Source: a virus. Taken from it: DNA of 64,000 nt. The stretch lies in IMG/VR virus record IMGVR_UViG_3300020438_004435; one strand, 5' to 3'. The notes under the pieces were generated by a model, which saw nothing but the letters and a program-made list of their open reading frames with translations, searched no databases and was not told where the DNA came from. The number at the start of each line of letters is the position of its first letter. Within the stretch, counting starts at the first letter, position 1. The position numbers and the translations under genes are program-made. This document shows positions 1 through 53,211 of this stretch, piece by piece.

Positions 1-282
1 ATTTAATCTTTTAATGGATATCAAATTAGGTCTAGAAAATGAAGCATCCAGATTATGTGTTTTAATATCTAATTTTAATGTTATATCATCAGACTGTATT
101 TCTACATCTTCTATACTTCTAGGGCTTGAAGGATATTTGGCATTAGGATAATTATCTATTATCAATTCCCTAACATGTGCTTCCACTATATCACCTACAC
201 CTCTCTGCATAATACCTCTACCCACCGGAATATAATCAGGCATTTCAGTATTTAATAGATATTCAATTTTCTCTATTTCCAA
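1..282 (-). CDS. Partial ORF running off the window start, not in the track; possible PD-(D/E)xK restriction-endonuclease-like protein
   Basis: Open frame from TTG at 282 to position 1 reads LEIEKIEYLLNTEMPDYIPVGRGIMQRGVGDIVEAHVRE...PRSIEDVEIQ...LDIKTHNLDASFSRPNLISIKRLN. The ED...DxK spacing is nuclease-like. Confidence 0.5.
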   Translation of the reverse strand, partial: MEIEKIEYLLNTEMPDYIPVGRGIMQRGVGDIVEAHVRELIIDNYPNAKYPSSPRSIEDVEIQSDDITLKLDIKTHNLDASFSRPNLISIKRLN

Positions 283-620
283 AATACCTGTATTAATACC
301 ATACATGTTGCTAATCCTAAGGATACCCAAGTTTTTGTATTTAATGGTTCATTCATAAACCACCATGTTAAAAATGCAAATGATATCATACCTAATGCAA
401 ATACAACCAATCGCTGTGGCCATAACAATCCATCAAATCCCTCATATGCCATTTTTGTAGCTATTATAAACAAATAACTAATAGGTATTCCTAATAATGA
501 TAATGTTATTGGATTCTTCTCAAACCATTTCCATACAAATTGTCCATTGATTTGAAGCCATACTAAAGTCTGTGTAATGAAAAATAACCCACTACTTATT
601 ATAATTAATTTTATATTCAT
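273..620 (-). CDS. Small integral membrane protein with about 4 TM helices (DMT/SMR-like topology)
   Basis: 115 aa with four hydrophobic segments. Confidence 0.55.
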   Translation of the reverse strand: MNIKLIIISSGLFFITQTLVWLQINGQFVWKWFEKNPITLSLLGIPISYLFIIATKMAYEGFDGLLWPQRLVVFALGMISFAFLTWWFMNEPLNTKTWVSLGLATCMVLIQVFWK

Positions 621-1073
621 CTATTCTATTATTGTTGTTGTAAAATATTTATTGAATTTTTTATATTCAGGTAATTCCATTAACCTCTTTTTTTGTCGAT
701 AATTATGAGATCCATTTTTTGATTTCATTTTCCAAAATGATTCCCTTTGTGGCCTTGGCTTATTAGCATCTGGATCAAACCTTGATCCAAATAATTTTGC
801 AATATACTCAGGAGTATGCCACTTGCCAATTATCTCCCAACCTGATCTATTTGCTGTTTTTCTTACATGATGATTCATTGTATATGATCCATCTGATAAA
901 AATAATTTATATCTATTAATACCAATTCTTTTAGATCCTATAACCATATATTCTTTTGGTTTATCTAATACCATTTCCATATCATCAATATAAACTATAC
1001 CGCCCTTTGGAGCTTTTAATTTAATATTTTTTAATACCTGACCATCACCATTTTTCAAAGGAATCCATACCAT
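621..1073 (-). CDS. Hypothetical protein; N-terminal domain shared with ORF 57517..58551
   Basis: LKNGDGQVLK...APKG...LDK.K...GIN.Y.L.L.D...TMN is matched in the second ORF. Confidence 0.75.
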   Translation of the reverse strand: MVWIPLKNGDGQVLKNIKLKAPKGGIVYIDDMEMVLDKPKEYMVIGSKRIGINRYKLFLSDGSYTMNHHVRKTANRSGWEIIGKWHTPEYIAKLFGSRFDPDANKPRPQRESFWKMKSKNGSHNYRQKKRLMELPEYKKFNKYFTTTIIE

Positions 1074-1074
1074 A

Positions 1075-1434
1075 TTAATCTTGATCTAATAATTTTGCAT
1101 AAGCAATTCTAACCTCATCCCTAAGATCCGATATTTCAGGACTACTTATAATACCTATCCTGAACGCTGAACTTGTAAGATAATTAAGACTTCTACGAAC
1201 CTTTAATGGATCAATCATATCTCCTAAATAATCCCTCATCTCAAGAATATTGGTTCTCATTATTTCTGGAGTCTTCCATGTCCCAACATATCTGGATCTC
1301 ATATCCTGCCATACTGGCTCAGCTACTACCATTTTAATATTAGCTGATCTAACCTCAGCTGCTGATGGATTGGACTCTGCAAATTTTTTACATTCCTCAC
1401 CATATAATCTTAATGTCTCTATTTTACGTTTCAT
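1075..1434 (-). CDS. Hypothetical protein
   Basis: 119-aa ORF packed 1 nt from each neighbour. Confidence 0.75.
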   Translation of the reverse strand: MKRKIETLRLYGEECKKFAESNPSAAEVRSANIKMVVAEPVWQDMRSRYVGTWKTPEIMRTNILEMRDYLGDMIDPLKVRRSLNYLTSSAFRIGIISSPEISDLRDEVRIAYAKLLDQD

Positions 1435-1435
1435 A

Positions 1436-1960
1436 TTAAAAGAAAAATTTATGTGTATTATCTATTTTTTTACTATCATTTCTAAACCCTATCAATTTAT
1501 CATATCTCCAAATCTCCTCATTATTCTTATTGAATACCTCTATCATACAATCCATAAATTGATTACACTCATTATGATAATAACCTTTTTTAAGCCATTT
1601 AGTATTTGTATTATACATATCCTTCCAAAGAATCAATCTTTCCGAATAAGAATAATTTACTAATAATTCCTTATTATTAATATCTCTATTCTCTTTATCA
1701 TATAAATCTCTAGATCCATATGTATCAATCTCTGATAATATAATATCAATTGCCTCAAAATTCTTAGCCGCCTTATATCCCATTATAAGACCTTCACACC
1801 AATTAACACATCTTTCCCATCTATCAACAGATTTATTATCATTAAAATAATTTTTTACCTTAGATAACTTTTCATCTAAACTAAATTTAGAACCTTTAAT
1901 AGAAGATCTAACTATTTGCCAATCAGCATTATATTTTGTAATATCTTTACTTTTTCTCAT
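1436..1960 (-). CDS. Hypothetical protein
   Basis: 174-aa ORF directly downstream of the promoter at 1977..2008. Confidence 0.75.
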   Translation of the reverse strand: MRKSKDITKYNADWQIVRSSIKGSKFSLDEKLSKVKNYFNDNKSVDRWERCVNWCEGLIMGYKAAKNFEAIDIILSEIDTYGSRDLYDKENRDINNKELLVNYSYSERLILWKDMYNTNTKWLKKGYYHNECNQFMDCMIEVFNKNNEEIWRYDKLIGFRNDSKKIDNTHKFFF

Positions 1961-1976
1961 CTCATTTATTTATATC

Positions 1977-2008
1977 TAAATATACGAAAAATATCTCATA
2001 TAACCAAA
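1977..2008 (-). promoter_or_regulatory. Bacteroidota-type housekeeping sigma promoter
   Basis: Minus strand reads TTTG (2008-2005), 20 nt, TATATTTA (1984-1977); resembles the -33 TTTG / -7 TAnnTTTG consensus. Confidence 0.7.
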
Positions 2009-2035
2009 TAATTTCGCTATTATTTTAGAAAGTTG

Positions 2036-2109
2036 TGAACCGAAAAGGATTCGAACCTTTGACCTATTGCTTAGAAGGCAATTGCTCTATCCAACTGAGC
2101 TACCGGTCC
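2036..2109 (-). tRNA. tRNA-Arg (anticodon TCT)
   Basis: Cloverleaf: GGACCGG/TCGGTTC acceptor stem, ATTGC-CT-TCT-AA-GCAAT anticodon arm, GGTTCGAAT T-loop; no encoded CCA. Confidence 0.95.
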
Positions 2110-2113
2110 ATTG

Positions 2114-2185
2114 TACTCCGACGGAGAATCGAACTCCGATTACATGGATGAAAACCATGCGTCCTAACCATTAGACGACCGGAGC
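2114..2185 (-). tRNA. tRNA-Glu (anticodon TTC)
   Basis: GCTCCGG/TCGGAGT acceptor stem, CATGG-TT-TTC-AT-CCATG anticodon arm, GTTCGAT T-loop; no encoded CCA. Confidence 0.93.
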
Positions 2186-2190
2186 AAATA

Positions 2191-2442
2191 TTAGTCTTTT
2201 ATCACCAATTCGTATTCGCCTGAGATATACTCTTTTCTACCCTTAGCATACTCTATTGGATTTTTTTGATGTGTCTTAAATGACGAATAACTATCCGGTC
2301 CATCTTTAAGTATTTGCACTTCACCATATCCTGGCCAGTGAGGTCCTTTAGTCATTTCTACTATAATTTGTTTTCTAACTGGCGTGTTAGAGTGATCCAT
2401 ATTGAACCACGCTTGTTTTAATAATGTTCTTTCTAAACTCAT
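2191..2442 (-). CDS. Hypothetical protein between tRNA genes
   Basis: 83-aa ORF with A-rich leader. Confidence 0.65.
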   Translation of the reverse strand: MSLERTLLKQAWFNMDHSNTPVRKQIIVEMTKGPHWPGYGEVQILKDGPDSYSSFKTHQKNPIEYAKGRKEYISGEYELVIKD

Positions 2443-2457
2443 AATTTTTAATTTTTG

Positions 2458-2531
<74 letters not shown>

Positions 2532-2533
2532 TG

Positions 2534-2713
2534 TTATATACATAACTTTTCTTTTAATCTTTTAACATGCTTACATTCCTGAAATGGTCTATACATAGCT
2601 GCTGGACATTCACATCCAAAATCATCATTAGATGTTCTGGATATCTTATAATATTTTAACTTACCAGTCTTCTTATCTCTAGATCCCATCTCACTATAAA
2701 ACCACTTTTCCAT
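2534..2713 (-). CDS. Small SWIM-type zinc-finger protein (59 aa, not in the track)
   Basis: MEKWFYSEMGSRDKKTGKLKYYKISRTSNDDFGCECPAAMYRPFQECKHVKRLKEKLCI has a CxC-x10-CxH motif. Confidence 0.7.
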   Translation of the reverse strand: MEKWFYSEMGSRDKKTGKLKYYKISRTSNDDFGCECPAAMYRPFQECKHVKRLKEKLCI

Positions 2714-2714
2714 A

Positions 2715-2819
2715 TTATATTAGTTTTCTTTTTTTTGCATCTTCAATAGATAAATACTCTATTTCGTCTGGCCATAATACTTCTACGTGATCTTTGTATA
2801 TTTTAATCTTTGGTCCCAT
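2715..2819 (-). CDS. 34-aa hypothetical protein (not in the track)
   Basis: MGPKIKIYKDHVEVLWPDEIEYLSIEDAKKRKLI fills the gap between neighbours with 1-nt spacers. Confidence 0.5.
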   Translation of the reverse strand: MGPKIKIYKDHVEVLWPDEIEYLSIEDAKKRKLI

Positions 2820-2820
2820 G

Positions 2821-3204
2821 TTACTGTATATTTTCTGATTCGTTAGCCATTGCCATATCTAATTCTAAAGAGCAAGGTATCTCCCCGTCTTCTTCAATAA
2901 TCTGTATGTCAGTCATAAGTGATAAAGCTTCTTGAGGAGTTATATGTAAGTTTTGAGGATTGTTTTGTCTTTGTACCTCTGTATAAACTACTATCTCTTG
3001 GTACATATCAATGTCGGAAGCTTTGATTAAGGTACCTTGGTCATCTAGATGAGATTTGAAGATTAATACTTCTCCAACTTGTACTAGGTCTGTTAACTCT
3101 TTTTTCGTCAACTTAAAGAAGTCTTCAGTAATTGTATATATGTGGTATTCAGTTACTGAATGTGATTGAGTTGATCTTGCTTGTAAATTTAATTTTGATT
3201 TCAT
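2821..3204 (-). CDS. Hypothetical acidic protein; C-terminal tail shared with the adjacent ORF
   Basis: 127 aa ending IPCSLELDMAMANESENIQ. Confidence 0.7.
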   Translation of the reverse strand: MKSKLNLQARSTQSHSVTEYHIYTITEDFFKLTKKELTDLVQVGEVLIFKSHLDDQGTLIKASDIDMYQEIVVYTEVQRQNNPQNLHITPQEALSLMTDIQIIEEDGEIPCSLELDMAMANESENIQ

Positions 3205-3265
3205 ATTATTGTATATTTTCTGATTCGTTAGCCCATTCCATATCTAATTCTTTTGAGCATGGTAC
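2821..3265. repeat. Direct repeat of about 60 nt (2821..2880 and 3206..3265)
   Basis: 51 of 60 positions identical by manual alignment; each copy encodes the last 19 residues and stop codon of one gene. Confidence 0.9.
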
Positions 3266-3484
3266 AATATTATGCTTTTCAACTAATGCATTGTATGCCT
3301 TATCATATTCCTTGTCGAATAGATCCAAGTCTAATGGAGTCGCATTTTCAAGAACGTATTGTTCATGATTCTTTTTTAGTGTTTCTAATTCAAATTCAAA
3401 CGCAACTCTTTCAGTTGTTTTATTATCAATTTCTTGTAGTCTAGCAATTTCAGTCTGCAACTCTTGTAATCTTTCTTTTGTCAT
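3206..3484 (-). CDS. Hypothetical coiled-coil protein
   Basis: 92 aa ending VPCSKELDMEWANESENIQ. Confidence 0.7.
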   Translation of the reverse strand: MTKERLQELQTEIARLQEIDNKTTERVAFEFELETLKKNHEQYVLENATPLDLDLFDKEYDKAYNALVEKHNIVPCSKELDMEWANESENIQ

Positions 3485-3485
3485 T

Positions 3486-3650
3486 TTATTTATATTTTTT
3501 AATCAATTCTTTATAGTTTTCCATGATGTAAATAATTTCTTCTTTATTTAATCCTGTTAACATTTTTACATTTGTTAAGTCGAACATATTTGTTACTCCG
3601 CTTAATCTACACCCTTCATATCTATTGAATTGTGTTTTAGTAATTTTCAT
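3486..3650 (-). CDS. 54-aa phage protein, DUF5049-like (not in the track)
   Basis: MKITKTQFNRYEGCRLSGVTNMFDLTNVKMLTGLNKEEIIYIMENYKELIKKYK contains an R.SG.TNMFD motif. Confidence 0.65.
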   Translation of the reverse strand: MKITKTQFNRYEGCRLSGVTNMFDLTNVKMLTGLNKEEIIYIMENYKELIKKYK

Positions 3651-3658
3651 ATCCGTTA

Positions 3659-3901
3659 TCATACTAATATCATATGTTTAGGAACATTATATATATTTCC
3701 ATTTATATTCACTTTACATTTTTTATGATTTACCTTTACTACCTCACAAGATACGCCAGCGAACTTAGGCGAATCTATTTGAACTTTCTGGCCTATCTTA
3801 AATCCGGAATGTTTCAAAGCCATCATTGTTTCTATTTGACCTTTTAATGTTTGTAATTCTTCATAAGACATTAAATGAAGATTTTCGAAATTTTTTTGCA
3901 T
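3659..3901 (-). CDS. Small protein with KOW/SH3-like C-terminus
   Basis: FKIGQKVQI...GVSCEVVKVNHKKCKV pattern. Confidence 0.6.
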   Translation of the reverse strand: MQKNFENLHLMSYEELQTLKGQIETMMALKHSGFKIGQKVQIDSPKFAGVSCEVVKVNHKKCKVNINGNIYNVPKHMILV

Positions 3902-3916
3902 TTTTTAATATTTTTA

Positions 3917-3990
3917 TTAGCACTCTAGAACTTTGTGTTCCTTATTATTTATATATAAATATACGAAGAATATCGCACTTTTCCTACAAA
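3917..3990 (-). promoter_or_regulatory. Promoter plus conserved 5' leader (copy 1)
   Basis: TATATTTA at 3963-3956, GAAC-N5-GTTC hairpin, then GAGTGCTAA; homologous to 5424..5493. Confidence 0.6.
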
Positions 3991-4114
3991 AATCGCAGGT
4001 ATTTTAATAAAGTTATGAACAATATTAATGGCCATTCTATGAATACAAGCCATGATATATTGATAGTATGATATAGTAAATTTAATAATATTATTAGTGT
4101 TATTAGTTCAATCA

Positions 4115-5407
4115 TTATACCGATCTTCCATTTTCATAAACATGCTTTACTGTTGGAAATCTTAATGATATTCCACCCTCCTGATTCTTTGTCTCTTCGA
4201 AGTATTGAACTGTAATAGTCTTACCTATAATCTTACTATGATCTTTACCGAACTCTTTTCTTTGTTCTAAAGAGAATCCTGATCCAACTCCAACCTTATG
4301 GCCTTTATGTTTAATCATAATTTGGCTTAAAGCATTTATAGTCTTTTCTTTACCTTCTGACACTATTCTAATATCTCCATTAGTAGCTCCCATAACCTTA
4401 TATTCCTCATCATGGAACTTCTTAACTTTTAATAGATTTTTTGTTCTCTTACCTTCATATTTTACATTCTTTCTTAACATGATACCTTCCCAATTATTAT
4501 CGGCAGCTAACTTAACCCATGTCTCAAAATGATCATCGCCTGTAATTACAGCTTGTTCTTCATACATTAAGTGATGCGAATAATTAGATGTAATTTGATA
4601 AAGAAAAGTCCTTAATGTTTGTAATCTATGCTCTAACCAACTAGAGTCAGCTTCTCCATTAAATTCCTTTATATGTAACATATCAAATATCTTAAATACT
4701 GGATCCTCGATAGTATGATCTTTTTTCTTAATTTCTTTCATTACACTTTGAAAATCTTCATTCATATTTTCATCTAGCAAACAAATCTCTCCATCAAATA
4801 CATAATTAACAATACCAGTAGATTCGATAGCCTTCTTTATTTTATCCAATGTTGTAAATTCATTTCCTACTCTAGAATATAATTTACATTTACCTTCTTC
4901 ATCAACAATAGCTAAACATCTTACTCCATCTAATTTTCTAGATGCATACCAGGTATCATTCCAATCTACTAATTTAGGCTCATATACATTAGCTAATGCT
5001 ACTTTGAATTCTGGTATTAAATTTGGAATAACCTTATTAATAACAGATTCAGAAGCTCTTATTTCAAGGTTTCTATCTAATATAGAGAATATAAGATCTT
5101 CGAATCCTTTATTAACCTCTACAAATCTATTAACTAATTTAATTGCATCATGACCTGTAACTTTTCTTGTTGCTAAAAAATCTAAAACCTGAAATAATGT
5201 ATGATGGCCTTGTGCTATCTTATCACTATTCTTCTTACAGTTCTTACTAGTAACATGATATTTGAAATAAGGATTATAAGTATAATATAATACCTTTGTA
5301 ATAAAGGAATCATCCTCTATACTTTTAATAATTTTCTTTTTCTCTAATAGAGAAGATGTAGATTTCATTCTATCTACAAACTCTTGTAACCTTTCTAATT
5401 CTTTCAT
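4115..5407 (-). CDS. lig: ATP-dependent DNA ligase
   Basis: Motif I RKLDGVRC, FDGEI, FKIFD, WEGIMLR, LLKVKK; OB-fold VGSGFS and SLRFPTV. Confidence 0.96.
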   Translation of the reverse strand: MKELERLQEFVDRMKSTSSLLEKKKIIKSIEDDSFITKVLYYTYNPYFKYHVTSKNCKKNSDKIAQGHHTLFQVLDFLATRKVTGHDAIKLVNRFVEVNKGFEDLIFSILDRNLEIRASESVINKVIPNLIPEFKVALANVYEPKLVDWNDTWYASRKLDGVRCLAIVDEEGKCKLYSRVGNEFTTLDKIKKAIESTGIVNYVFDGEICLLDENMNEDFQSVMKEIKKKDHTIEDPVFKIFDMLHIKEFNGEADSSWLEHRLQTLRTFLYQITSNYSHHLMYEEQAVITGDDHFETWVKLAADNNWEGIMLRKNVKYEGKRTKNLLKVKKFHDEEYKVMGATNGDIRIVSEGKEKTINALSQIMIKHKGHKVGVGSGFSLEQRKEFGKDHSKIIGKTITVQYFEETKNQEGGISLRFPTVKHVYENGRSV

Positions 5408-5423
5408 TATATTTTTAATTTTA

Positions 5424-5493
5424 TTAGCACTCTTGAGCTTCGCGCTCTTATTTATTTATATATAAATATACGAAAAATATATGACATATACAA
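5424..5493 (-). promoter_or_regulatory. Promoter plus conserved 5' leader (copy 2)
   Basis: TTG (5493-5491), 20 nt, TATATTTA (5470-5463), GAGC-N5-GCTC hairpin, GAGTGCTAA. Confidence 0.65.
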
Positions 5494-5544
5494 CCTTTTT
5501 CGCAGTTATTTTGCAAAAAAGTGTAAAAAGTTATGAAAAATTGA

Positions 5545-5943
5545 TTATTTTTTTACTTTTATGTGAATTACTTCCTGGACTTCAGTATTGATTCTTTTAA
5601 GTCCTTCATCGTTTGTAACTAGCATGCAATTTCTATAATTATCCCAATCAACCTGGTAAGTTGTGTCAAGAACGCCATTATTTAACATTTTTATAAGAAC
5701 ATTTAATGCATTAATAGTATATAATGTATTTGTCATTTTTTTACGATGTAATGAAATTGTATTTGCTAAAATATTTACCTGAGTAGATGCGTCTATATTA
5801 TATGTGCACATTAATTCCGGTGTTTCTTTACTTTTTAATACGAAAACCTTATTAAAAAGAATATCATATGATTCTATTATTGTATCAACCGTAGGGTGTA
5901 ATACCTTAGGTGATGAAAAAGTACATAGTAATTGTGTTCTCAT
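5545..5943 (-). CDS. Hypothetical phage protein
   Basis: 132-aa ORF with A-rich leader. Confidence 0.75.
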   Translation of the reverse strand: MRTQLLCTFSSPKVLHPTVDTIIESYDILFNKVFVLKSKETPELMCTYNIDASTQVNILANTISLHRKKMTNTLYTINALNVLIKMLNNGVLDTTYQVDWDNYRNCMLVTNDEGLKRINTEVQEVIHIKVKK

Positions 5944-5968
5944 TATTTATTCTTTTCTTCTTTTTGCA

Positions 5969-8038
5969 TTATATTTTTCCTAATACTTTTGAGCCATCCA
6001 TTATACTACCCCCTGATACTGAGAATGAGAACGTATCCCTACTTCCAGATCTTAAATCTACTTGTGTATACTTTGTTCCTTTTTCTGTTATAGAATGTAG
6101 AATCCACATTTTTACAGCAGTATAACCTTTACCCTTTTGAACACTTGATTCCACAACTACACCAGGTACGGATTTTCCATCCTTAACTGCATCGGTCATG
6201 TTCATAGCTTTAAGTTTATCTTCTCTAAATTCTTTTCCACTCTTTAGGTATTCCCAAGCTGTCCCACTAATATCTGCTCCGTATACTTTGAACATTGGTA
6301 AGTCCGTTTTTCCAAAATACATTTCCTTTTCCAATTCTACGAATTCTTCTAATACAGTTGTGACATCCTTTATTTCACCTTTAGAACTTGCAAGCATTTT
6401 TGTTAAGTGTTCATAAGCAGTAAAGTTAATCATAAGCTTTATTATATAATTTGCACCATCTTTTATATCTTTTATTGTATAATCTTCAGGACCTGCTGAT
6501 ATTTTTGTAGGATATATTCCGTCATTTGCGACGTTTAATAGTCTTTCTAAAATACTCCATTGTTGTTGAGCTTTGTTTAGTAGGTTATTAGAATATGACT
6601 TATCCTTATTCATGGCAGCTCTTGCAACCATCTCAGCATAGGCACCATAACTATATCTAGGTGATTTAGCTTCCTTTAACGTCAGAGGTGCTTTATTAAA
6701 TTCCTTTTTCATAAATGATTCGAGTGATGATGAAGGTTTATTCATACTAAACGTAAGGCTTTTTAGAACTGAGGATGAGAATTTAGCAACCTTGTTTTTT
6801 GCCTTATCTAATAAGGTTGTAAACTTATCCTTAATATATTTTAATCCCTGCTTAAAGTATTGTGCTAGGCCTTCATTTAATAAAAATCCTTTATCGCCAT
6901 GTTCAGCAATTTCCTTTTGTAGATAAACCCTCCATGTATCCATAGGTTCCTTTAATCCATACATATCTGCAAATGCTACCTGAATTCTACCTAGCTGGGC
7001 TCCGCCCTTTTTAAGTTTATTACTTATTTGAAAAAATTCAATACCGGATTCCGTTTTGCACTTGCCTGAACTATCGAATTCTATTTTCTCACTTTTCATT
7101 GCTGTGATAAGAGCTTGAGTACTTCCTTTAACTATAACCGTATCTGCTGTATTGTCCTTAAAGCCTGAAGTATCAAGATTTTTATTTTCATATCCAGCCT
7201 TATAATAATTACCTATACTTGAGTGTATAAAATTCCAACCTTTACAGCCATGTGCCGATGCAAATGCATGTACGCCGTTTGCTAATTCTAAAGCACGTAT
7301 TACATCAGGTATACCTTCTATAGCGCTTAGTCCAGAAGCTCCTGCATATTCGCCTGATTTACCTAAGGCAGACTTGAAAGCATTGATTGCACCCTCAACA
7401 TCTGATTGTTGAGCATTTGGAGTCATTATTTTTGTGTAGTAAGATGTAGGGTCAAAATATAATCCTGTACAAGCTGCTGATTCTAATTCTTTTTCTCCCC
7501 AAGATATCTTAAATGATGAAGATTTTTTTGTAGCATTCTTAAAAAGTTTTGACATCTTTGTTTTTGCACCGCTTATCTTATATGTTTTACCTCCAGCACT
7601 AATATATGCAATTTTAGGATTTGTTTCTCCTGGTGATAAGTCGACATCGATAGCATCGGATGTTTTTGCAACAACCGTATATGGTCCTTTTGGTGCATCC
7701 TTCCATACATTGAATGTTTGTGCTCCAGCTAGCTGTTCTGTTCCTACAGGCTTATCCCATACAGAAGACTCTACTAGTATACTTTCATCACTAATAATTT
7801 TTCCAACCTTTACACAGAATTCCTGAAATGTTTTTTCATTGAGGTGTTCTGATGGTTGTTGATCCTTACCAGTTGCACTTAGATTAGCTACTAATTCCTT
7901 AATAAATTTATGTGAAAAATTTTGTTCAAACAAAACCTCCATCAATGTTGTCAGATGGTTATCATTAGATACGTCAGGCATTCCATTACCTACTCGCCAA
8001 GACCATTCTCTTAATATTTTATCTGCGTTGAACTTCAT
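5969..8038 (-). CDS. Large hypothetical protein, possibly virion-internal
   Basis: 689 aa; several [L/I]-x-E sites (HLNE, LLNEG, TLKEA); upstream TATTTATA motif. Confidence 0.7.
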   Translation of the reverse strand: MKFNADKILREWSWRVGNGMPDVSNDNHLTTLMEVLFEQNFSHKFIKELVANLSATGKDQQPSEHLNEKTFQEFCVKVGKIISDESILVESSVWDKPVGTEQLAGAQTFNVWKDAPKGPYTVVAKTSDAIDVDLSPGETNPKIAYISAGGKTYKISGAKTKMSKLFKNATKKSSSFKISWGEKELESAACTGLYFDPTSYYTKIMTPNAQQSDVEGAINAFKSALGKSGEYAGASGLSAIEGIPDVIRALELANGVHAFASAHGCKGWNFIHSSIGNYYKAGYENKNLDTSGFKDNTADTVIVKGSTQALITAMKSEKIEFDSSGKCKTESGIEFFQISNKLKKGGAQLGRIQVAFADMYGLKEPMDTWRVYLQKEIAEHGDKGFLLNEGLAQYFKQGLKYIKDKFTTLLDKAKNKVAKFSSSVLKSLTFSMNKPSSSLESFMKKEFNKAPLTLKEAKSPRYSYGAYAEMVARAAMNKDKSYSNNLLNKAQQQWSILERLLNVANDGIYPTKISAGPEDYTIKDIKDGANYIIKLMINFTAYEHLTKMLASSKGEIKDVTTVLEEFVELEKEMYFGKTDLPMFKVYGADISGTAWEYLKSGKEFREDKLKAMNMTDAVKDGKSVPGVVVESSVQKGKGYTAVKMWILHSITEKGTKYTQVDLRSGSRDTFSFSVSGGSIMDGSKVLGKI

Positions 8039-8072
8039 ATCTTATATAAATAGAAATTTTATAGGGGAAACC

Positions 8073-9383
8073 TTACTGCAATACATTATAATTGTCTCCT
8101 CTCTTAGTTTTGATAGGAAAATATAGTGCTTCTTCTACATCATGTAAAAATGAATCCTCATCACTTGGGTGGTAATCAAATGTGAAGGAATCGTAAGTGT
8201 ATAAAATAAGTTTTGATTTATATTTATCCATAACATTAATTAATTTATCCAAAATTTTACTGTTATATTCTGTCTCTAATGATTGTAGAAAATAGTTTAA
8301 CAATTTCGGTGGATTCATATCCACTAGATTAGAAGCATATAACTTTCTTTTATATAAATATGTAGAAATATAACTTTTGGCCTTATATTCCTTCCACAAT
8401 TTCTTTGTAAATATATCTATTTTATTAAAAAATTCAATACTTTTCATTTCACTTGGAATACCTCCATATAAAATTCTAAATGATATTGTTTTAGCTTCTT
8501 TATATTCCTCGTCCGTTAATACATCCTTACCAAAATACTGCTTACCTAAATACATGTGAATAGATTCATCAGGAAATTTATAATCTATAACCTCAGCCAT
8601 CATTCTTAAATGGTATGCATCAAAATCACATTCAACAATTTTACCATTCTTAAATCTACTTATATATTTTTCCCTCGTGCCGTCTTCCTTATTAAGAGCC
8701 GCATAATTAATACCACCATATCTATTGGATGGTCTACCTGTACTAGTATATAAATTATATTGTGAATACTCAAACCCTTGCATAGTAAATAAACCCGATT
8801 CCTCTATTTTATATAAATTATATAAGGTATTGTTATTATACGTATTATATGCATCCCTATCCACCTTATCAAAATCATACTGTTTATACGCGATTTCCTT
8901 AAGTTTACGGCACTTTTCCAAGTGTTTGAATATAGGAATAAGGGTGCCAATCTTTGGAAAATTGTAATATTTACGTTCTATAAAATTATGAGCTACTGTA
9001 TTGTTATTTGATAATTCTAATGGTATATTAGTATGAAACCAATTAGCTAAATTGAGATCTAATATCTTTTCACTTTCAATCTTATTCCATTTTAATATAT
9101 GTAATAATTCCTTTTTATCTGGTGTAAGTATTTGTGTAAAATTTGATAATATTTTAGCCGCCTGATCAAGATCAAATGATGTTAAAGCTTCTGGGTGATT
9201 CATAGGAATAATAAACTCATGACCCTCATCCTTATCTATGCCTAAATATAAATAAAATAAACATAAATCATTTTTAGCTGGATGTTTGTATATATCAGAG
9301 AATATAGGTATCACAAAAGCCGTTGAAAACTTTTCCGACATATTAAATAAACTAACTACACTTTGTGGAGTTTCTACAATCAT
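8073..9383 (-). CDS. Family A DNA polymerase-like protein, short and apparently thumbless
   Basis: TSTGRPSN, motif A DFDAYHLRMMA, motif B AKTISFRILYGG, motif C YTYDSF. Confidence 0.85.
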   Translation of the reverse strand: MIVETPQSVVSLFNMSEKFSTAFVIPIFSDIYKHPAKNDLCLFYLYLGIDKDEGHEFIIPMNHPEALTSFDLDQAAKILSNFTQILTPDKKELLHILKWNKIESEKILDLNLANWFHTNIPLELSNNNTVAHNFIERKYYNFPKIGTLIPIFKHLEKCRKLKEIAYKQYDFDKVDRDAYNTYNNNTLYNLYKIEESGLFTMQGFEYSQYNLYTSTGRPSNRYGGINYAALNKEDGTREKYISRFKNGKIVECDFDAYHLRMMAEVIDYKFPDESIHMYLGKQYFGKDVLTDEEYKEAKTISFRILYGGIPSEMKSIEFFNKIDIFTKKLWKEYKAKSYISTYLYKRKLYASNLVDMNPPKLLNYFLQSLETEYNSKILDKLINVMDKYKSKLILYTYDSFTFDYHPSDEDSFLHDVEEALYFPIKTKRGDNYNVLQ

Positions 9384-9407: not shown

Positions 9408-9438
9408 TAAATATACAAAAATTAATTCAATTTACCAA
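9408..9438 (-). promoter_or_regulatory. Bacteroidota-type promoter upstream of the PolA-like gene
   Basis: TTG (9438-9436), 20 nt, TATATTTA (9415-9408). Confidence 0.6.
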
Positions 9439-10062
9439 CTAATCACCGCGGTAAACCTCATCGTATTTTGAATACTCTACATAATTGTAAATGATGGTAT
9501 GTAATTCAGCTATTTCTTTACTATTAGAGGCCACTGTTCTCATATTAGTATCTTCAACACCTGATTCCAAAAGCTTTCCATCCTTACCATATATATCATT
9601 TTTTGGACCTGATACTTTCCACTTCATTGTAATGGCTTTATATAGAAAGGGATTTATACCCTCATCCTTAGCATCGTATTTATCATACTGATCTTTATCT
9701 ATTTCCAAAATCGGAGCTGAGATATCATTTCTTTTTCTAATAAAATATCGCATCATATATCCACGAGTCATATCATCCTCATTTGGTAATATTATCTGAT
9801 AGTATGGATCATTAAATTTATAATCATGAGCTACATTATTTGATTCTGCTAATTTAATATATGTCCTTATAGTATCCGAATCATATGTAACCAGATTTCT
9901 CAATGGTTTACTAGAACCTTCATCAAATACTCTACCAGTATAAGGTCCAGTAGATGTTACATTATAATAACCAGTATAAGCAACATAATCCATTAACATA
10001 AATTTGGAGCCATCTGTATATTGATTTTCCTTTTTAATATGTGAGGGTGTATATCTTGCCAT
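9439..10062 (-). CDS. Hypothetical baseplate-region protein
   Basis: 207 aa, last gene of the tail/baseplate run; GGAGG SD. Confidence 0.55.
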   Translation of the reverse strand: MARYTPSHIKKENQYTDGSKFMLMDYVAYTGYYNVTSTGPYTGRVFDEGSSKPLRNLVTYDSDTIRTYIKLAESNNVAHDYKFNDPYYQIILPNEDDMTRGYMMRYFIRKRNDISAPILEIDKDQYDKYDAKDEGINPFLYKAITMKWKVSGPKNDIYGKDGKLLESGVEDTNMRTVASNSKEIAELHTIIYNYVEYSKYDEVYRGD

Positions 10063-10063
10063 T

Positions 10064-12508
10064 TTATCCTCCCGTCTCGCCGCCTTCTCTAGGTGCTGAA
10101 AGAATTTGAGTAATTAAATCCTTACATGCATCTACATCATCGATGGTAGATCTTTTATAAATTTTTGTTAGAAGATTTGTTATTTTTTCTTGCATTTGAT
10201 CTACCGTTAACCTTTCACTTTTTACCGTTTCTTCAGTCTTACCTTCAATTCCTTCTTCACCAACCGTAATTCCTTCACTATCCAAAGACATTACCATTGC
10301 ATTAGGATAAATGTATGATGCATCTCCCGGTTTGTTTCCAATACCAAATGTACCTAATCTTTCCTGTTTAGTAATGTCATCTATTTTATTACCCGCTACC
10401 TCAAGATCGGTTAATTTTTCATCAGCGGTTGATAATTTACTATAATGCAATTTAGTATATGCATCATTCTGTGGTAGGAATCTCATTATACAATCTATAT
10501 CAGTAGACCAATCAGTAACCGAAATAGAATGTTTTACATCCTTTACGAAAAAATATACCTGATTTTGATATCTGGTTGGTATATAATCTATCATAAATCC
10601 TTGACCGAATTGTAATCCTGATATACCATCTATTTCAAAGCTACAATCCAATGGAATTAATTTACTAGCTTGCAATTCATTTTTTTGTTCCGCTTCACCA
10701 GTAAATCCTGTATTAGCTCCAAGAGCTAACATTTGTTTCATTCCATTAGGAATTTTTGATTTGAAATCTAATTTACGTAAAATACCATGTTGCCTGCCAG
10801 CTGGTAATTCGGTTACATAAACATTATCATTTAATGTAAAATTATCATCTACTACTGAACATATATTAGGATACATTTCATCTACTACCATTCTAAAATT
10901 CCATGGATTACCACATGCCTCATTTATACTAGATAATAATGCTTCCATATACCCTTCTAGAGTATCTTCTTCCTGAGTTATTCTTATACATTCATTTACA
11001 TTAACAAATATATTTCCAAGATATCCGGCTGATAAAGGATCATTTAGAGACATTGCCCCTGAACTGTCTTCTGGTTCGATTATACCTGCTAGATAAATTG
11101 CTTCATCAATTTTTTGAACAGCAAATAAATCCACTTCATCAGGACCACTTAAACCTGATGGTCTATTAGCTGTCTTTACAGCAGGAGTATAATGGGTATC
11201 TCCTACCTGGCCAGGAATTAAACATACTGAAGGATCCGATGATAATAAAAATTTATCATTACCTATAACTGAAGTGTACATTGGCTCATCACCTGTATTA
11301 TTCATATCACTACCAATCTTCATTGTCATTAGTGGGCCAGATGCTGGTGTTGTCTTATCGCCTTCTCCTGCTTCCCTAGTTGCAGCACTAGTAACCTTAT
11401 ATAAAGGATTTATTATCTTATCTATCAGATCTCCAAATTTAACAAAGTTAAATCTATCAGATGTAGTTTTTGCTAAATCGGATTCAATTGTTTCCCTAAA
11501 TTTAGATGTAGATCCAAATTTATAGGAATATACTTTTAATTTTACATCTGGTATGCCAATTTGATCTTTTAATTTAATATTCTTTTCCTCAATACTACTG
11601 ACATTATCGTAAATTTGTTTACCTATAGTAAGTAGGGCAGATGATAATCTACTTTCTTTTGCTTTATCTTTATCATCCTTATTTTCCCCTTGCTGTGATA
11701 CTGGAGCAGCTAGTGGCATATTTAATGTAGTATCGCCCATTGCTGTAACTTCCGTTTTACAATCAAAGGACATATCATCTCTTAGGTTCCAAGAAAAATT
11801 AACTGTATATCCAAACATAGCATCATAACAACCTCCTGAAGCTTTTCTTCTTTTATTAATTTCTTGCTGAACCTTTGTTGGATTTTTTAATATCTCATCA
11901 TCTAAAGGCATTAGATTTAATGGTTCATTATGATTTACAGACCAACCCCACTCTACCAAAATTCTTATTCCAGGGGTCATATAAAAGGTTTCGAATCTTT
12001 CAAGATCATCTAAATGATAACATACCCAATCTATAGAAGCTTTTTTTAATGCCCCTCTTGACCCTTTATAATTTATTGTTACACCCTTTATACCAGGCAT
12101 AGGTTTTAATCCTCTCTGGATACCTTGAGCTCTTATTTCATCTAAGGATGGATTTTCATTTTCATTAAATTTATAAATACCACTATACATTTGATCAAAT
12201 CCTTCTCGCCTACCAAATGTATCAGTATCCTTACCCTTTGCATGTCCTGCAAATAAGATGTGTTCAAATCTAGTAGAATTTGAAAATTCACCATTCCATA
12301 ATTCTTCCTTCTTTTCACCCTCTTTAGTAGAACCTGCAGTATCTGGCAATGGCACAGCATTTGATACTATTCTTATATATGGTGTTTTTTGATGATGCCA
12401 ATACCTATCTTCTGCAGGAACTCCTGGTATGTGTTTTGCTAGACCTTTAATACGTCTTAACAATTCCTCTCGAACATATGGTAATGGTGCGCTATTAAAT
12501 AATGGCAT
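10064..12508 (-). CDS. Putative baseplate hub protein (gp27/gpD-like)
   Basis: 814 aa with PMPGIKGV...ILVEWGWS and a C-terminal IDGISGLQFGQGF beta region; follows the LysM-like gene. Confidence 0.6.
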   Translation of the reverse strand: MPLFNSAPLPYVREELLRRIKGLAKHIPGVPAEDRYWHHQKTPYIRIVSNAVPLPDTAGSTKEGEKKEELWNGEFSNSTRFEHILFAGHAKGKDTDTFGRREGFDQMYSGIYKFNENENPSLDEIRAQGIQRGLKPMPGIKGVTINYKGSRGALKKASIDWVCYHLDDLERFETFYMTPGIRILVEWGWSVNHNEPLNLMPLDDEILKNPTKVQQEINKRRKASGGCYDAMFGYTVNFSWNLRDDMSFDCKTEVTAMGDTTLNMPLAAPVSQQGENKDDKDKAKESRLSSALLTIGKQIYDNVSSIEEKNIKLKDQIGIPDVKLKVYSYKFGSTSKFRETIESDLAKTTSDRFNFVKFGDLIDKIINPLYKVTSAATREAGEGDKTTPASGPLMTMKIGSDMNNTGDEPMYTSVIGNDKFLLSSDPSVCLIPGQVGDTHYTPAVKTANRPSGLSGPDEVDLFAVQKIDEAIYLAGIIEPEDSSGAMSLNDPLSAGYLGNIFVNVNECIRITQEEDTLEGYMEALLSSINEACGNPWNFRMVVDEMYPNICSVVDDNFTLNDNVYVTELPAGRQHGILRKLDFKSKIPNGMKQMLALGANTGFTGEAEQKNELQASKLIPLDCSFEIDGISGLQFGQGFMIDYIPTRYQNQVYFFVKDVKHSISVTDWSTDIDCIMRFLPQNDAYTKLHYSKLSTADEKLTDLEVAGNKIDDITKQERLGTFGIGNKPGDASYIYPNAMVMSLDSEGITVGEEGIEGKTEETVKSERLTVDQMQEKITNLLTKIYKRSTIDDVDACKDLITQILSAPREGGETGG

Positions 12509-12512
12509 ATAA

Positions 12513-12845
12513 CTACTCCTGTTTTATATTATTAATGGTATCTAATTTAGATAAGATAGCAGATATATCCTTAGGAATTATTAACTGAGTACCTGGTGTT
12601 ACGAATAAGCTATCTCCTGGTAGATTGTTAGCGGCAGCTATAACCCACCAAAGGGTTCTATCGTTATAAAAACGATTAGCTAAATTATCTAATCTATCTA
12701 CTATAGAAGCAATAATAATATTGTCTGTAGTCTTTGTCGTAACCTCAGGTATAATAGTCGTAGTCTTAATAAGTTTATTAAAACGAGGATCTACCTGATC
12801 TATATTAGTGGCTTTTTTCTTTTTATTATATGAATATCTTCCCAT
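12513..12845 (-). CDS. LysM-like / tail protein X baseplate component
   Basis: DRLDNLANRFYNDRTLWWVIAAANNL...PGTQLIIP. Confidence 0.85.
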   Translation of the reverse strand: MGRYSYNKKKKATNIDQVDPRFNKLIKTTTIIPEVTTKTTDNIIIASIVDRLDNLANRFYNDRTLWWVIAAANNLPGDSLFVTPGTQLIIPKDISAILSKLDTINNIKQE

Positions 12846-37906: not shown

Positions 37907-37957
37907 TTTCTATTTCCTCTTTAATAAAGTATTCGTCTATTATAAATATGAAGTTTT

Positions 37958-38626
37958 CTAGGAATGTGGGAAGTTATCGTAAACTTCTAGTAAATCTTTT
38001 AATATAGGATGTCTATAATTTTCATGCAGAGTTACTGTATGCATTCCTTTGACCGATTTTATATTGGATAGGAATGATAGGCCGCTATCTTTATGTCTTT
38101 TTAGATCAACCTGATTTATATCACCACAGAACATCATTCTACTTCCTACTCCAACTCTTTGTAATATCATTAATGTTTGGCTATTATCTAAATTTTGACA
38201 TTCATCAACTATCACAGTTGAATTGGTAAATGTTCTACCTCTCATGTATGATACTGGAACTATCTCTATTTGTTCCATCGCCACCATAGCATCGATTCTT
38301 TCCCTACGTAATAGTTGATACATGTTTCCATATATAGGTGCTACCCATGGATCCATTTTATCCTTAATGTTTCCTGGTAAATGACCTATGTCTTCCTTTG
38401 AAATTGTAGGTCTTGTTATTATTATTTTAGTTGCCCATTTATCTAATAATGATTGTAATGCAATTTGGCAAGCTAAAAGTGTTTTTCCTGAACCTGCTTC
38501 ACCTAATAATACCGATACATCATTTTCTAATATTTGAGCTTTTGCCTTCTTTTGTTCTTCAGTAAGTGAAATTTTGAATCTATAACCTTTTTTAACATTC
38601 TTCGGTCGATCTTTCTTCATTGACAT
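37958..38626 (-). CDS. phoH: PhoH family protein
   Basis: Walker A GEAGSGKT, ITRP, YMRGRTF, VDECQN, GDINQVDL. Confidence 0.95.
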   Translation of the reverse strand: MSMKKDRPKNVKKGYRFKISLTEEQKKAKAQILENDVSVLLGEAGSGKTLLACQIALQSLLDKWATKIIITRPTISKEDIGHLPGNIKDKMDPWVAPIYGNMYQLLRRERIDAMVAMEQIEIVPVSYMRGRTFTNSTVIVDECQNLDNSQTLMILQRVGVGSRMMFCGDINQVDLKRHKDSGLSFLSNIKSVKGMHTVTLHENYRHPILKDLLEVYDNFPHS

Positions 38627-38684
38627 ATAATTCTCCTGAAACTAATGATTTATTATAAATAGTTGTTTTCAGACTGAAGTATAA

Positions 38685-38715
38685 AAAAAGACCTCCCTAA
38701 ATAGGAGGTCTTTTT
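38685..38715 (-). terminator. Rho-independent terminator after the major capsid gene
   Basis: AAAAAGACCTCC-N7-GGAGGTCTTTTT stem with A/T tracts on both sides. Confidence 0.88.
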
Positions 38716-38737
38716 AATGAAATATATTAAAGTGATA

Positions 38738-40522
38738 TTACAGAGTATGTAATCCTCTAACTTCAATCTTACCATAGAATTCTGGTCTAACGATCTTCTT
38801 CGCGTAACGCGTCATTACACCTTTTCTTGGTGTAAAGTTTTTCGGATCGTAAACTAGTGGAGTCATAATTAATGGAACATATGGAGCATATACAGCACCA
38901 GTTTCCAAGAATTGAGTTCCTCTAAAGCCCATCAAGATAGTATTCTGAACCATGTAAGGATTTTTGTAAACAGTAAATCTGTTATTCAATTGTCCTACTT
39001 TCTGAACACCCATTGCAAATTGAGATGAGTTACCATCTGTGTTTGCAGCATATCCAGGAATTGATTCTAATACAGTAGCTACATCTGGAGAACAAACTAA
39101 CCAGTTTGCACCACCACGCATAGTTTTTTGGTGAATCTTGTTACTAACTTTTTGGATTTTAGTTCCTAAAGTTTGGAACCAAAGACCTTGGTTGTAAGCT
39201 TCACCAGTATTAGCACCTACCCAAATGTTATTACCATCGTATTTTTCACCAATAGTAACTGACCATCTTTCAGTAGTTAATGCATTTCTTTGTAACATGT
39301 CTAAAATTTCTAAATCAATCTCTTGTGAGATGTATTCAGATAACATAGAAGTTAATTCAGCTTCAGCATCAATAGAGTGGTAAGCATTTAAGTCTTGAGC
39401 GAACTCAGGAGTCCAAACAGCTTTCAACTTTCTAGTCTTAGCTACGATTGGAATACTTCTCATTTCTAAATTGATTTCTGGAATAGCTAAATCAGTTTCA
39501 GGGTTTGCAGCTGTAGCAGCTGTAGTAGTTTCAAAGTCACCTCTAGTGATATCAGTTGGAGTTTTAATAAACTGAACCTTATATCCTTCTTGTGACGATG
39601 CACCTGAACCAGATACTACGAACTGAATAAATGTTCCATTTGCTTTTTCATTACCGCTTGAATCAGTTAATTTAGTAAATTCAGAAAATACTTTTTCAAC
39701 TATCTTAAAGTTTTTACTAGTTACTGTTGAACCTGACGTATGCGTTAATTGGAATGCTCTTACAGCTTCCTTATCTAGGAACTTATGTCCTGTTGATCCA
39801 TCTGCATCAGTAAAGATAGATGAAGTAGCGAAGTAATATCTAGCTACTGCTTTACCACCTAATGCTTCAGCAACGTTTCCACCTGTTCCACCGTGGAACT
39901 GGCCTGCATAAGATTGTGAGAATACAGTATTGAAATTGTAATCTACTCCTCTTAATGAAGCTGTTGTTACTGAAATACCTTGGTCACCAGATCCACCTGA
40001 GTGGCCTGCTGCACCATCTGTTTTAGCACCTGCAGTTTCAACATACTTGTTAGTATATCCATATCTACCTGCACCATAAAGACCTTCAGTTGGGTCTCCT
40101 GATTCATTTGTTTCACCGAATACAGAGTCTTTTTGTGATGTTCTACCTTGAGCAGTTTTGAAGTCTGCAACCGAAGTTCCATACTTATAATCAAGATAGA
40201 AGATAAGACCTGACGGTAAGTTCATAGGTTGAACTGATACGAAATCTTTGGCAGCAATTTCTGCGAAGATTCTTCTAACTAAAGGTAAAGCTACACCTGA
40301 CCACTCTTCCGAGTTTGATGCAGTACCTGTTCTAGATGATTCATCGATAAGTTGCTTAGCTTGATTCTCTAAAAGAACCGCCATACCGTGTTTTTCGTAA
40401 TCGTTATCCAACCCTTCTAAAAGACCAGTCTTCATCCATTTTCCTACAACTGCTTTTGTTTCAGTCAATTGTTGTCTATGGATGTTACTAGTATTGTCTA
40501 AAATGTTTCTAACACTTTCCAT
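38738..40522 (-). CDS. Major capsid protein (T4 gp23-like)
   Basis: VSVQPMNLPSGLIFY, KTRKLKAVWTPEFAQDLNAYH, YAPYVPL, GVMTRYA. Confidence 0.97.
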   Translation of the reverse strand: MESVRNILDNTSNIHRQQLTETKAVVGKWMKTGLLEGLDNDYEKHGMAVLLENQAKQLIDESSRTGTASNSEEWSGVALPLVRRIFAEIAAKDFVSVQPMNLPSGLIFYLDYKYGTSVADFKTAQGRTSQKDSVFGETNESGDPTEGLYGAGRYGYTNKYVETAGAKTDGAAGHSGGSGDQGISVTTASLRGVDYNFNTVFSQSYAGQFHGGTGGNVAEALGGKAVARYYFATSSIFTDADGSTGHKFLDKEAVRAFQLTHTSGSTVTSKNFKIVEKVFSEFTKLTDSSGNEKANGTFIQFVVSGSGASSQEGYKVQFIKTPTDITRGDFETTTAATAANPETDLAIPEINLEMRSIPIVAKTRKLKAVWTPEFAQDLNAYHSIDAEAELTSMLSEYISQEIDLEILDMLQRNALTTERWSVTIGEKYDGNNIWVGANTGEAYNQGLWFQTLGTKIQKVSNKIHQKTMRGGANWLVCSPDVATVLESIPGYAANTDGNSSQFAMGVQKVGQLNNRFTVYKNPYMVQNTILMGFRGTQFLETGAVYAPYVPLIMTPLVYDPKNFTPRKGVMTRYAKKIVRPEFYGKIEVRGLHTL

Positions 40523-40539
40523 TTTCTTTTCTCCTTGGG

Positions 40540-51485: not shown

Positions 51486-51496
51486 TTTTTAATCTC

Positions 51497-51817
51497 CTAT
51501 AGATTTTTTTCTGCTTCCGCTAGAGCTGCTTCTAAATCCGCTATTGTTTGATCGTTCTTTTTAACGTTCTTTTTTGCGTCTTTAACTTGCTTACTTCTAC
51601 CATCTGCAGATTTAGTTAATTCGGTTAGTTCGTTATTAAGTTTTTGTTTTTTAACATTAACCTCCTGAATTTGAGATTCTAACCGTTTAACCTCATCATC
51701 ATTCTTTTTAATTTTTGGATTTATTTTTCGTCCTTTAGCTTTTGCTGCAAGCAATATAGCTAAAATAGATCCTATTAGTCCTATTATAAATAGTATTGAT
51801 TTTTTTATCTTACCCAT
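51497..51817 (-). CDS. N-terminal TM plus coiled-coil protein (spanin/holin-like)
   Basis: SILFIIGLIGSILAILLAA followed by heptads. Confidence 0.5.
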   Translation of the reverse strand: MGKIKKSILFIIGLIGSILAILLAAKAKGRKINPKIKKNDDEVKRLESQIQEVNVKKQKLNNELTELTKSADGRSKQVKDAKKNVKKNDQTIADLEAALAEAEKNL

Positions 51818-51819
51818 TT

Positions 51820-52170
51820 TTAACTCTGTTCCTTTTCAGTAAAATTATATTTATCATCTATATACTTCTTAAAGTATGAATACATTTTATTCATTAGGTC
51901 TGTATTATCCTTAAGATTGTTTAATGCATTAACTACAGTTTGTTTATCAATTTGATTTTGTTCTGGTGTTTTTGCTGGATCATTTGGTTTTCTTATAAAA
52001 TCTACATAATTAGGCATCGCTCCTAATGTGGTAGTTAATTGTAAAACATAATCATTCATTGACTGTATCATCTTATCTAACCTTTCATCACCTTCAGAAG
52101 CCTTTGCTTGTTCCTGCTCGATCATAAATTGTTTTATGCGCCAATCTCTATCACTAAATTGTTTTGCCAT
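51820..52170 (-). CDS. Hypothetical protein
   Basis: 116 aa with AGGAG SD. Confidence 0.65.
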   Translation of the reverse strand: MAKQFSDRDWRIKQFMIEQEQAKASEGDERLDKMIQSMNDYVLQLTTTLGAMPNYVDFIRKPNDPAKTPEQNQIDKQTVVNALNNLKDNTDLMNKMYSYFKKYIDDKYNFTEKEQS

Positions 52171-52179
52171 TATATTCTC

Positions 52180-52392
52180 CTAGTTCCAAAAAATTAATTT
52201 ACCTAGAATACCTACAAGGACTACCCAGATTGACCATAAAGTCTTTTGAGCACCTTTTCTAAATGAGGTGTTCTTGTTAACCCTTGATATAGTTCCATTA
52301 TCTGGATCTAGTAATCTAACTTTTATTTCCCTAACATCAGATTTGATTGATATTAATTCGTCGTGTAGTTGTTGGTTTGTTAATCTTGCCAT
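52180..52392 (-). CDS. Small protein with C-terminal TM helix (holin-like)
   Basis: Short coiled coil then LWSIWVVLVGILGKLIFW. Confidence 0.5.
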   Translation of the reverse strand: MARLTNQQLHDELISIKSDVREIKVRLLDPDNGTISRVNKNTSFRKGAQKTLWSIWVVLVGILGKLIFWN

Positions 52393-52394
52393 TA

Positions 52395-52595
52395 TTATTC
52401 GCCTAAGTTAACGCCTTTGTTTGAAACATGTTCTCCAACATTACCTGCTGCATATATTCCAAATACCCATTTAACAAATTCTGCCCATTGAGTAAAGTCC
52501 GCTTGTTTAGTTGCTACAAATACTATTGATGCTAAAAATAGAATCATTGCGAACATTAATTTTTTACTTTGCAATTGTGTCTTAAGATTGCTCAT
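52395..52595 (-). CDS. Small two-TM protein (holin-like)
   Basis: 66 aa with two hydrophobic segments. Confidence 0.5.
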   Translation of the reverse strand: MSNLKTQLQSKKLMFAMILFLASIVFVATKQADFTQWAEFVKWVFGIYAAGNVGEHVSNKGVNLGE

Positions 52596-53211
52596 CTTCT
52601 TTCTCCGATTTTAATTCATTATACTTACTACCAAGTCTTGCCTGTTCCCTTAAATCATCCTTGAATGATTCAAATTGCGTTTGTATTTTTTCATTTATTG
52701 AATCCACAGATTCAGGTAATTTCCATTTTTCAACCTTACCATCACTATTTACATAATCCATTTGTGTAAAGGTATTTTTAATTATATCAACTTCCTGTTC
52801 TGCTTCCTTAATAAATGATTCTACATTTTCTTGTATTTTTTGTCTTTCATAATTACCGTATATATCTTCACCCTTTACATATCCTTCACACATCATTAAT
52901 GTTTCTTCCTTAACTACACAATCATGACATTTATTTTCCCTTGTAACAAATTTATGATCAAATCTGGTTAATTTCTTTTTACAATTAGGACAATCATTAG
53001 TATTAATTAATTTTCTAATTTTATCAAATCTACTTACCTTAGATTTATACCCATCCTTCTGTATCCATTTTTGACCATTTGCATCTACCCATTCATCACC
53101 TACAATTCTTTCTGATTGATCCTTTTCAAATCCAACGGTTGCCTTAGTCTGTGATCTATGAGATCCTCTTAACATCTCATTGACCGCTTTAATATTTTTT
53201 AATTTACTCAT
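52582..53211 (-). CDS. Hypothetical protein with CxxC...CxxC zinc motif
   Basis: CPNC...CHDC. Confidence 0.65.
   Translation of the reverse strand: MSKLKNIKAVNEMLRGSHRSQTKATVGFEKDQSERIVGDEWVDANGQKWIQKDGYKSKVSRFDKIRKLINTNDCPNCKKKLTRFDHKFVTRENKCHDCVVKEETLMMCEGYVKGEDIYGNYERQKIQENVESFIKEAEQEVDIIKNTFTQMDYVNSDGKVEKWKLPESVDSINEKIQTQFESFKDDLREQARLGSKYNELKSEKEDEQS

Follow-up and report, generated by a model that had tools for sequence, protein, structure and literature searches.

The 64,000-nucleotide window considered here (the whole stretch of IMG/VR record IMGVR_UViG_3300020438_004435 that was analysed) belongs, on the profile matches of its TerL, portal, prohead protease, major capsid, PhoH, neck, sheath, tube, hub and tape-measure/lysin genes, to a T4-like jumbo myophage, and all of its genes lie on the minus strand. 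Among the head genes is one for ribosomal protein bS21 (rpsU), the commonest viral ribosomal protein, and Shine-Dalgarno (SD) motifs lead about half of the phage genes. The favoured reading, given a probability of roughly 0.55, is that phage bS21, made early, frees the anti-SD sequence of host ribosomes for translation of abundant middle and late proteins. The features that bear first on this proposal are as follows.

273..9383, minus strand: SD-less block with a PolA-like gene, a 689-amino-acid (aa) gene, a DNA ligase gene, small accessory open reading frames (ORFs) and three tRNAs (GGAG/GAGG at 0/15 starts; ligase and PolA-like domains)
9439..29504, minus strand: tail module with SD leaders, comprising baseplate wedge, tape-measure/lysin, hub, tube and two sheaths (PHROG matches; leaders)
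36734..48535, minus strand: head module, comprising TerL, portal, prohead protease, putative scaffold, major capsid, PhoH and neck (profile/PHROG matches; scaffold named from its position)
41881..42258, minus strand: bS21 (rpsU), 125 aa, between the scaffold gene and the two small genes that follow the protease (Pfam PF01165, E=1.5e-16; PHROG 21469; matches to bS21 in the PDB)
42608..42617, minus strand: extended SD before a 90-aa gene that lies immediately upstream of bS21; 9-10 bp can pair with the 16S tail of Bacteroidota (-13.3 to -14.5 kcal/mol)

SD leaders in the window

The SD pattern is real and non-random. An earlier, sequence-only reading of the window had described a sharp division between accessory genes at 273-9383, with A/T-rich leaders devoid of GGAG, and structural genes led by strong GGAG motifs, and had proposed that leader pairing energies be compared by gene class. 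Within the window that division is evident. With bS21 excluded, GGAG or GAGG is present at -18 to -4 of 0/15 starts in 273-9383 and of 22/42 starts in 9439-59391 (Fisher p=1.6e-4), and the mean energy of leader pairing to 16S rRNA is -1.05 kcal/mol in the former region vs -6.05 kcal/mol in the latter (Mann-Whitney p=1.4e-6). GGAG alone precedes 19/42 starts beyond 9439, vs 4.5% of 379 internal in-frame ATGs, and is spaced 5-9 nt upstream of the start. All 18 GGAG-led starts named in the sequence-only reading carry the motif at this spacing, 15 of them as AGGAG, the start at 52595 being an additional, 19th case; the A/T-rich leaders before 3901, 5407 and 2442 are likewise as it gave them.

SD strength varies among the structural genes. 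In the head module it is strong for scaffold, capsid and PhoH and weak for TerL, portal and protease; the last three, together with neck and the genes at 35236 and 16558, have only weak or partial motifs, and the structural genes at 36185, 54144 and 58551 have none. The bS21 gene, which sits amid the head genes, has no SD. The extended SD of the neighbouring 90-aa gene is near the strength of that of host rpsU and is not conserved in relatives. A leader element, GTGCTAAT and then an A-run, occurs twice in the SD-less block, at 5430 and 3923 (minus strand), before the ligase gene and an 80-aa gene, each copy lying behind a similar promoter block.

The phage bS21 protein and its gene

Three features within and beside the bS21 gene, which the sequence-only reading had presupposed but did not cite, distinguish it.

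42130..42258, minus strand: basic N-terminal extension of ~43 aa, ending in hydrophobic-x-Gly, I40-E41-G42 (alignments; 13 K/R in residues 1-44)
41968..41970, minus strand: Gly97, at the position of Flavobacterium johnsoniae Tyr54, i.e. KPS Ser+12 (aligned to the Tyr of PDB 9i5v bS21)
42259..42321, minus strand: A-rich leader of bS21, without an SD (pairing energy +0.8), and putative host-type promoter motif (TTG-N~18-YGTATATT)

The PF01165 match scores 60.2 bits against a curated cut-off of 27, and the gene shares the strand of the head genes, those for TerL, portal, protease and capsid being no more than about five genes away. The N-terminal extension is absent from host bS21; in relatives its end motif is usually hydrophobic-Pro-Gly, with Gly42 invariant. 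The Tyr54 position is non-aromatic in 61/61 close homologues and is Tyr or His in four marine Bacteroidota hosts. An AlphaFold model predicts a bS21 core that has a long C-terminal helix, confidence being low at the N-terminus (residues 1-30); Foldseek searches with this model returned bS21 and bS21m as top matches, none at E 0.001. A conserved Trp-containing C-terminal motif (42033-41881; W116 and A124 invariant) takes this bS21 subfamily past host length.

The promoter motif is found upstream of bS21 in 7/7 clade members, and possession of its own host-type promoter motif suggests that bS21 is expressed earlier than the late structural genes. In Flavobacterium, rpsU autoregulation (Jha 2021, PMC7797042; McNutt 2023, PMC9976891) is comparable in that the state of bS21 is proposed to decide anti-SD availability. 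There, however, an extended SD (< -13 kcal/mol) leads host rpsU and SDs are absent from other genes, whereas the phage arrangement is the inverse: the rpsU leader, at ~0 kcal/mol, lacks an extended SD of this autoregulatory type and many other genes have short SDs.

A second motif, TATTTATA, probably a late promoter, occurs upstream of several structural genes (38661, 37948, 35270, 22593, 20974, 8052 and 41772, minus strand), and also in the Flavobacterium phage immuto and relatives. In one clade (L326, L338, L359, L558, L341, L563, L324, L303 and L555) a late-type motif (TATTTATA in most) lies ~85 nt upstream of bS21; a conserved hairpin and U-run come next, immediately ahead of the bS21 leader, and may be a small RNA, a terminator or a translational control element.

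Host type and relatives

Two further features bear on the host.

2457..2531, minus strand: tRNA-Ala(TGC) of Bacteroidota type, a host marker (pattern with the anticodon stem left free)
9410..9438, minus strand: host-type promoter motif exactly at the boundary of SD-positive and SD-less genes (further copies at 5493, 2007 and 48586)

The host is probably a member of the Bacteroidota, in agreement with the sequence-only reading, on the indirect evidence of the tRNA-Ala pattern, the promoter motif and A-rich leaders like those of immuto. Among the matches listed for the tRNA-Ala pattern, 118/120 are Bacteroidota, and the tRNA-Ala of one relative, G039, is 96% identical to a Bacteroidota copy. The promoter motif, which is close to, though not the same as, the -33/-7 Bacteroidota consensus (PMC6847099), occurs in 9 copies in 73 kb vs 0.85 in shuffled sequence and 2 on the opposite strand, and in 17 copies in immuto; the SD-less leaders have the same A-rich -13 to -10 profile as those of immuto. 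A GroEL search of plasmids gave no pointer to the host.

The nearest cultured capsids are those of immuto (vB_FspM_immuto, Immutovirus; 61%) and Mel-JY01 (53%), both with syntenic head and tail modules. Unlike the present phage, immuto has no bS21 and is essentially without SDs (1 in 50 syntenic genes), and in Mel-JY01 the same slot is occupied by a short bS21 gene with its own SD (Lys at position 54 of the protein), SDs being more widespread. Mel-JY01 (PP395634.1, L005) was deposited as a Microcystis phage, yet the capsid tree and synteny place it within this family; its host record may merit checking.

Comparison was extended to 115 relatives, dereplicated at 85% capsid identity, a capsid gene being scored as SD-led when its leader pairs at -4 kcal/mol or better. 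Starts came from an SD-blind caller, with some miscalls (e.g. L576, L615). A capsid SD is present in 39/40 relatives with an extension-type bS21 (a class set by regular expression, which missed about three members) vs 3/31 without a head-module bS21, most relatives being fragments in which an empty head slot is no proof of bS21 absence. The extension-type bS21 leader is itself SD-less in 40/40, though neighbouring genes are SD-led. By contrast, a short, host-like bS21 (L342, L478, L486, L488) accompanies SD-less capsid genes, and the complete genome G017, with a short host-like bS21 that has Tyr54, lacks the extension and is encoded outside the head module, is SD-less genome-wide. GGAG/GAGG is found at 1-2% genome-wide in G017 and in immuto, the latter being, with G067, a complete genome without bS21. 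Whether relatives lacking bS21 share the SD enrichment was one of the refuting tests that the sequence-only reading had set beforehand; 28/31 capsid leaders of relatives without a head-module bS21 are SD-less, so that the refuting outcome largely did not arise, a result that is weak after phylogenetic correction.

Other observations on the phage and its family are as follows. Two tandem tail sheath genes lie at 22629-26477 and 26510-29212 (1282 and 900 aa), and the last ORF (59393-64000; L628 1-9999) encodes the end of a tail-fibre-like protein of 5068 aa, the rest of which lies beyond the window edge. A 7-deazaguanine pathway (PTPS/QueD, QueC, radical SAM, FolE) and a glycosyltransferase cluster in the same phage (L624 689-5947; L632 12054-20960) suggest DNA or virion modification. 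tmRNA genes are present in relatives (L161 13184-13476, L171 6168-6460, L163, L126 and G044), two relatives' tmRNAs being called permuted by ARAGORN, with tags starting GEQ.

Proposed retuning of host ribosomes and its alternatives

Taken together, bS21 and the SDs suggest that the phage re-tunes host ribosomes to read its own messages. bS21 would be transcribed from its host-type promoter and, given its SD-less, A-rich leader, could be made by unmodified host ribosomes. It would then replace host bS21 in 30S subunits where, lacking Tyr54 and bearing a basic extension, it may fail to hold, or may actively free, the 16S 3' tail that would otherwise be sequestered by host bS21, bS18 and bS6. Converted ribosomes would prefer AGGAG-led phage mRNAs over SD-less host mRNAs, the SD class here apparently consisting of abundant proteins, middle as well as late. 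Previous work has shown that Bacteroidota ribosomes sequester the anti-SD, with involvement of Tyr54 (PMC7797042), and that translation of a reporter with AGGAGGU, but not of one with AGGA, rises 1.7 to >2-fold upon Y54A substitution or loss of the C-terminus (PMC9976891). The wider version of this proposal, that a widespread bS21 subtype (basic extension with a hydrophobic-Pro-Gly end) converts SD-blind Bacteroidota ribosomes to SD-reading ones, providing a private translation channel in which the switch protein is SD-less and made first and abundant proteins are made via SDs absent from host mRNAs, is more tentative, with odds a little short of even.

Several observations weigh against the favoured reading. 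The first concerns the breadth of SD use. The genome is ~199 kb (the longest contig that carries this bS21 cluster being 198,865 bp) and is covered in part, ~45 further genes beyond the window having been read from contigs 99-100% identical in overlaps. Among these 45 non-virion genes GGAG/GAGG leads 17, not significantly different from the 22/42 of the structural region (p=0.20); pooling all non-structural genes (17/60 vs 22/42, p=0.022) leaves a modest difference. The accessory/structural split thus holds inside the window but not genome-wide. SD-led non-virion genes include those for SSB, RecA, RNR, dNK, QueC, GroES, GroEL and glycosyltransferases, so a switch confined to late genes is at odds with the data; a strictly late SD class is ruled out for this phage, and the strict early/accessory vs late/structural classes of the sequence-only reading are not supported. 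Beyond the window, SDs are missing from the genes for DnaB, PolB and the clamp loader and from most of those that immediately follow the host-type promoter. A more fitting account of the SD-less class is that it comprises bS21 itself, replication enzymes of low copy number, small accessory ORFs and genes that a host-type promoter immediately precedes. Confinement of SDs to late genes is closer to the truth in the relatives G044, G045 and G043; in the near-complete G044 and G045, SDs lead 4/4 high-copy virion genes vs 1/8 and 2/9 replication genes. Breadth of SD use therefore differs by clade, about a constant core of scaffold, capsid, sheath and tube. A ribosome-level switch, as the sequence-only reading proposed, is still an inference.

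The second set of opposing points is comparative. Tyr or Phe is kept at position 54 in 15/40 extension-type bS21 proteins, nearly all still accompanied by a capsid SD, the SDs of Tyr54-retaining phages being somewhat weaker (-3.7 vs -4.8). Loss of Tyr54 is thus unnecessary, and is ruled out as sole determinant, the extension being the better correlate of SD use. A clade comprising L510, L527 and L596 (incomplete contigs) has no head-module bS21, yet has SDs on scaffold and capsid. On the tree, bS21 state needs to change only 7 times and SD state 8 times, and the 3 independent pairs on well-supported branches do not give a significant sign test. The G025 clade has SDs genome-wide, including on its extension-less bS21 (9/9; the 33 own-SD cases in the whole no-extension class are so by definition, the best-scoring candidate start having been taken), promoters of TTGAC type and a tRNA-Ala unlike that of Bacteroidota. 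The host of this clade probably uses SDs, so the clade is not countable as support and probably inflates the raw bS21-SD correlation. The third set concerns strength: phage SDs are mostly -6 to -9 kcal/mol, AGGA gave no gain in F. johnsoniae even without bS21 (PMC9976891), and AGGAG was not among the F. johnsoniae reporters that were found described.

These points lend some weight to other explanations. The best placed of them, albeit unlikely, is that the host, a non-Bacteroidia or unusual Bacteroidota species, reads SDs itself, SD strength tracking abundance, the SD-less block being a local accessory cluster, and bS21-SD covariation reflecting shared ancestry and host. The SD-led non-virion genes, the presence of SDs on high-copy genes rather than low-copy enzymes (as abundance tuning predicts), the scarcity of independent contrasts and the apparently SD-using hosts of sister clades are all consistent with this; so too is the 7:0 ratio of GGTGA to GGTGT in clade leaders, a 16S-tail test that covers ~3 orthologous sites and is not significant. 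By contrast, the tRNA-Ala is of Bacteroidota type here and in G039, the promoter motif and A-rich leaders match immuto and not G025, and Flavobacteriales genomes typically have one strong SD only (PMC9976891). Nor does an SD-competent host explain why extension-type bS21 is SD-less in 40/40 cases within SD-led modules, when the G025-clade gene is SD-led in 9/9.

Rather less likely still, another phage product may free the anti-SD by removing or modifying host bS21, bS18 or bS6, with phage bS21 as an accessory that stabilises or refills the platform. McNutt et al. speculate on a phage factor that removes host bS21 (PMC9976891), and both the Tyr54-retaining bS21 proteins accompanied by SDs and the SD-positive clade without a head-module bS21 would be accommodated. 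However, no such factor was identified, SD use closely follows the extension subtype, and ribosomes without bS21 initiate poorly on weak-SD and SD-less mRNAs (PMC9976891). The idea that GGAG is a leftover from an ancestral host that used SDs, or works without pairing to 16S rRNA as part of purine-rich, unstructured leaders, with bS21 having an unrelated role, e.g. ribosome maintenance, is improbable: although the family seems to span hosts and occasional residual SDs occur on scaffold genes of the otherwise SD-less relatives L296, L342 and L486, SD spacing is kept, the motifs persist across capsids only 50-60% identical, and G at -12/-13 lowers translation in Flavobacterium, so relics should decay, as in immuto.

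Similar phages have been described before. The freshwater Bacteroidetes myoviruses of Chen et al. 2022 (PMC9723584) are similarly large myophages with bS21 among TerL, portal, protease and capsid genes, an inferred Bacteroidota host and proposed substitution of bS21 into host ribosomes. According to the accessible text, their bS21 is encoded on the other strand from the structural genes and keeps Tyr54 or another aromatic residue, whereas here it is on the same strand and has Gly at that position and a 43-aa extension; the conclusion reached there was that phage bS21 keeps the anti-SD blocked, and no analysis of SDs on phage genes was found in that text. bS21 exchange was raised as speculation by McNutt et al. 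2023 (PMC9976891). A literature search, in which subscription journals were mostly outside coverage, found no paper linking phage bS21 to SD distribution. The present comparisons add that SD use in this phage is not limited to late genes, that the extension subtype correlates with it best, and that part of the signal is confounded by differences between hosts.

The results bear on the reason that phages have bS21 genes: for those of Bacteroidota, the published view is that anti-SD masking is kept, and the present data point the opposite way. They single out AGGAG-led phage mRNAs as the class acted on, with the extension and position 54 as two candidate determinants. If the proposal is correct, the virus would be making a specialised ribosome of its own, one that might serve as a tool for orthogonal SD-dependent expression in Bacteroidota.

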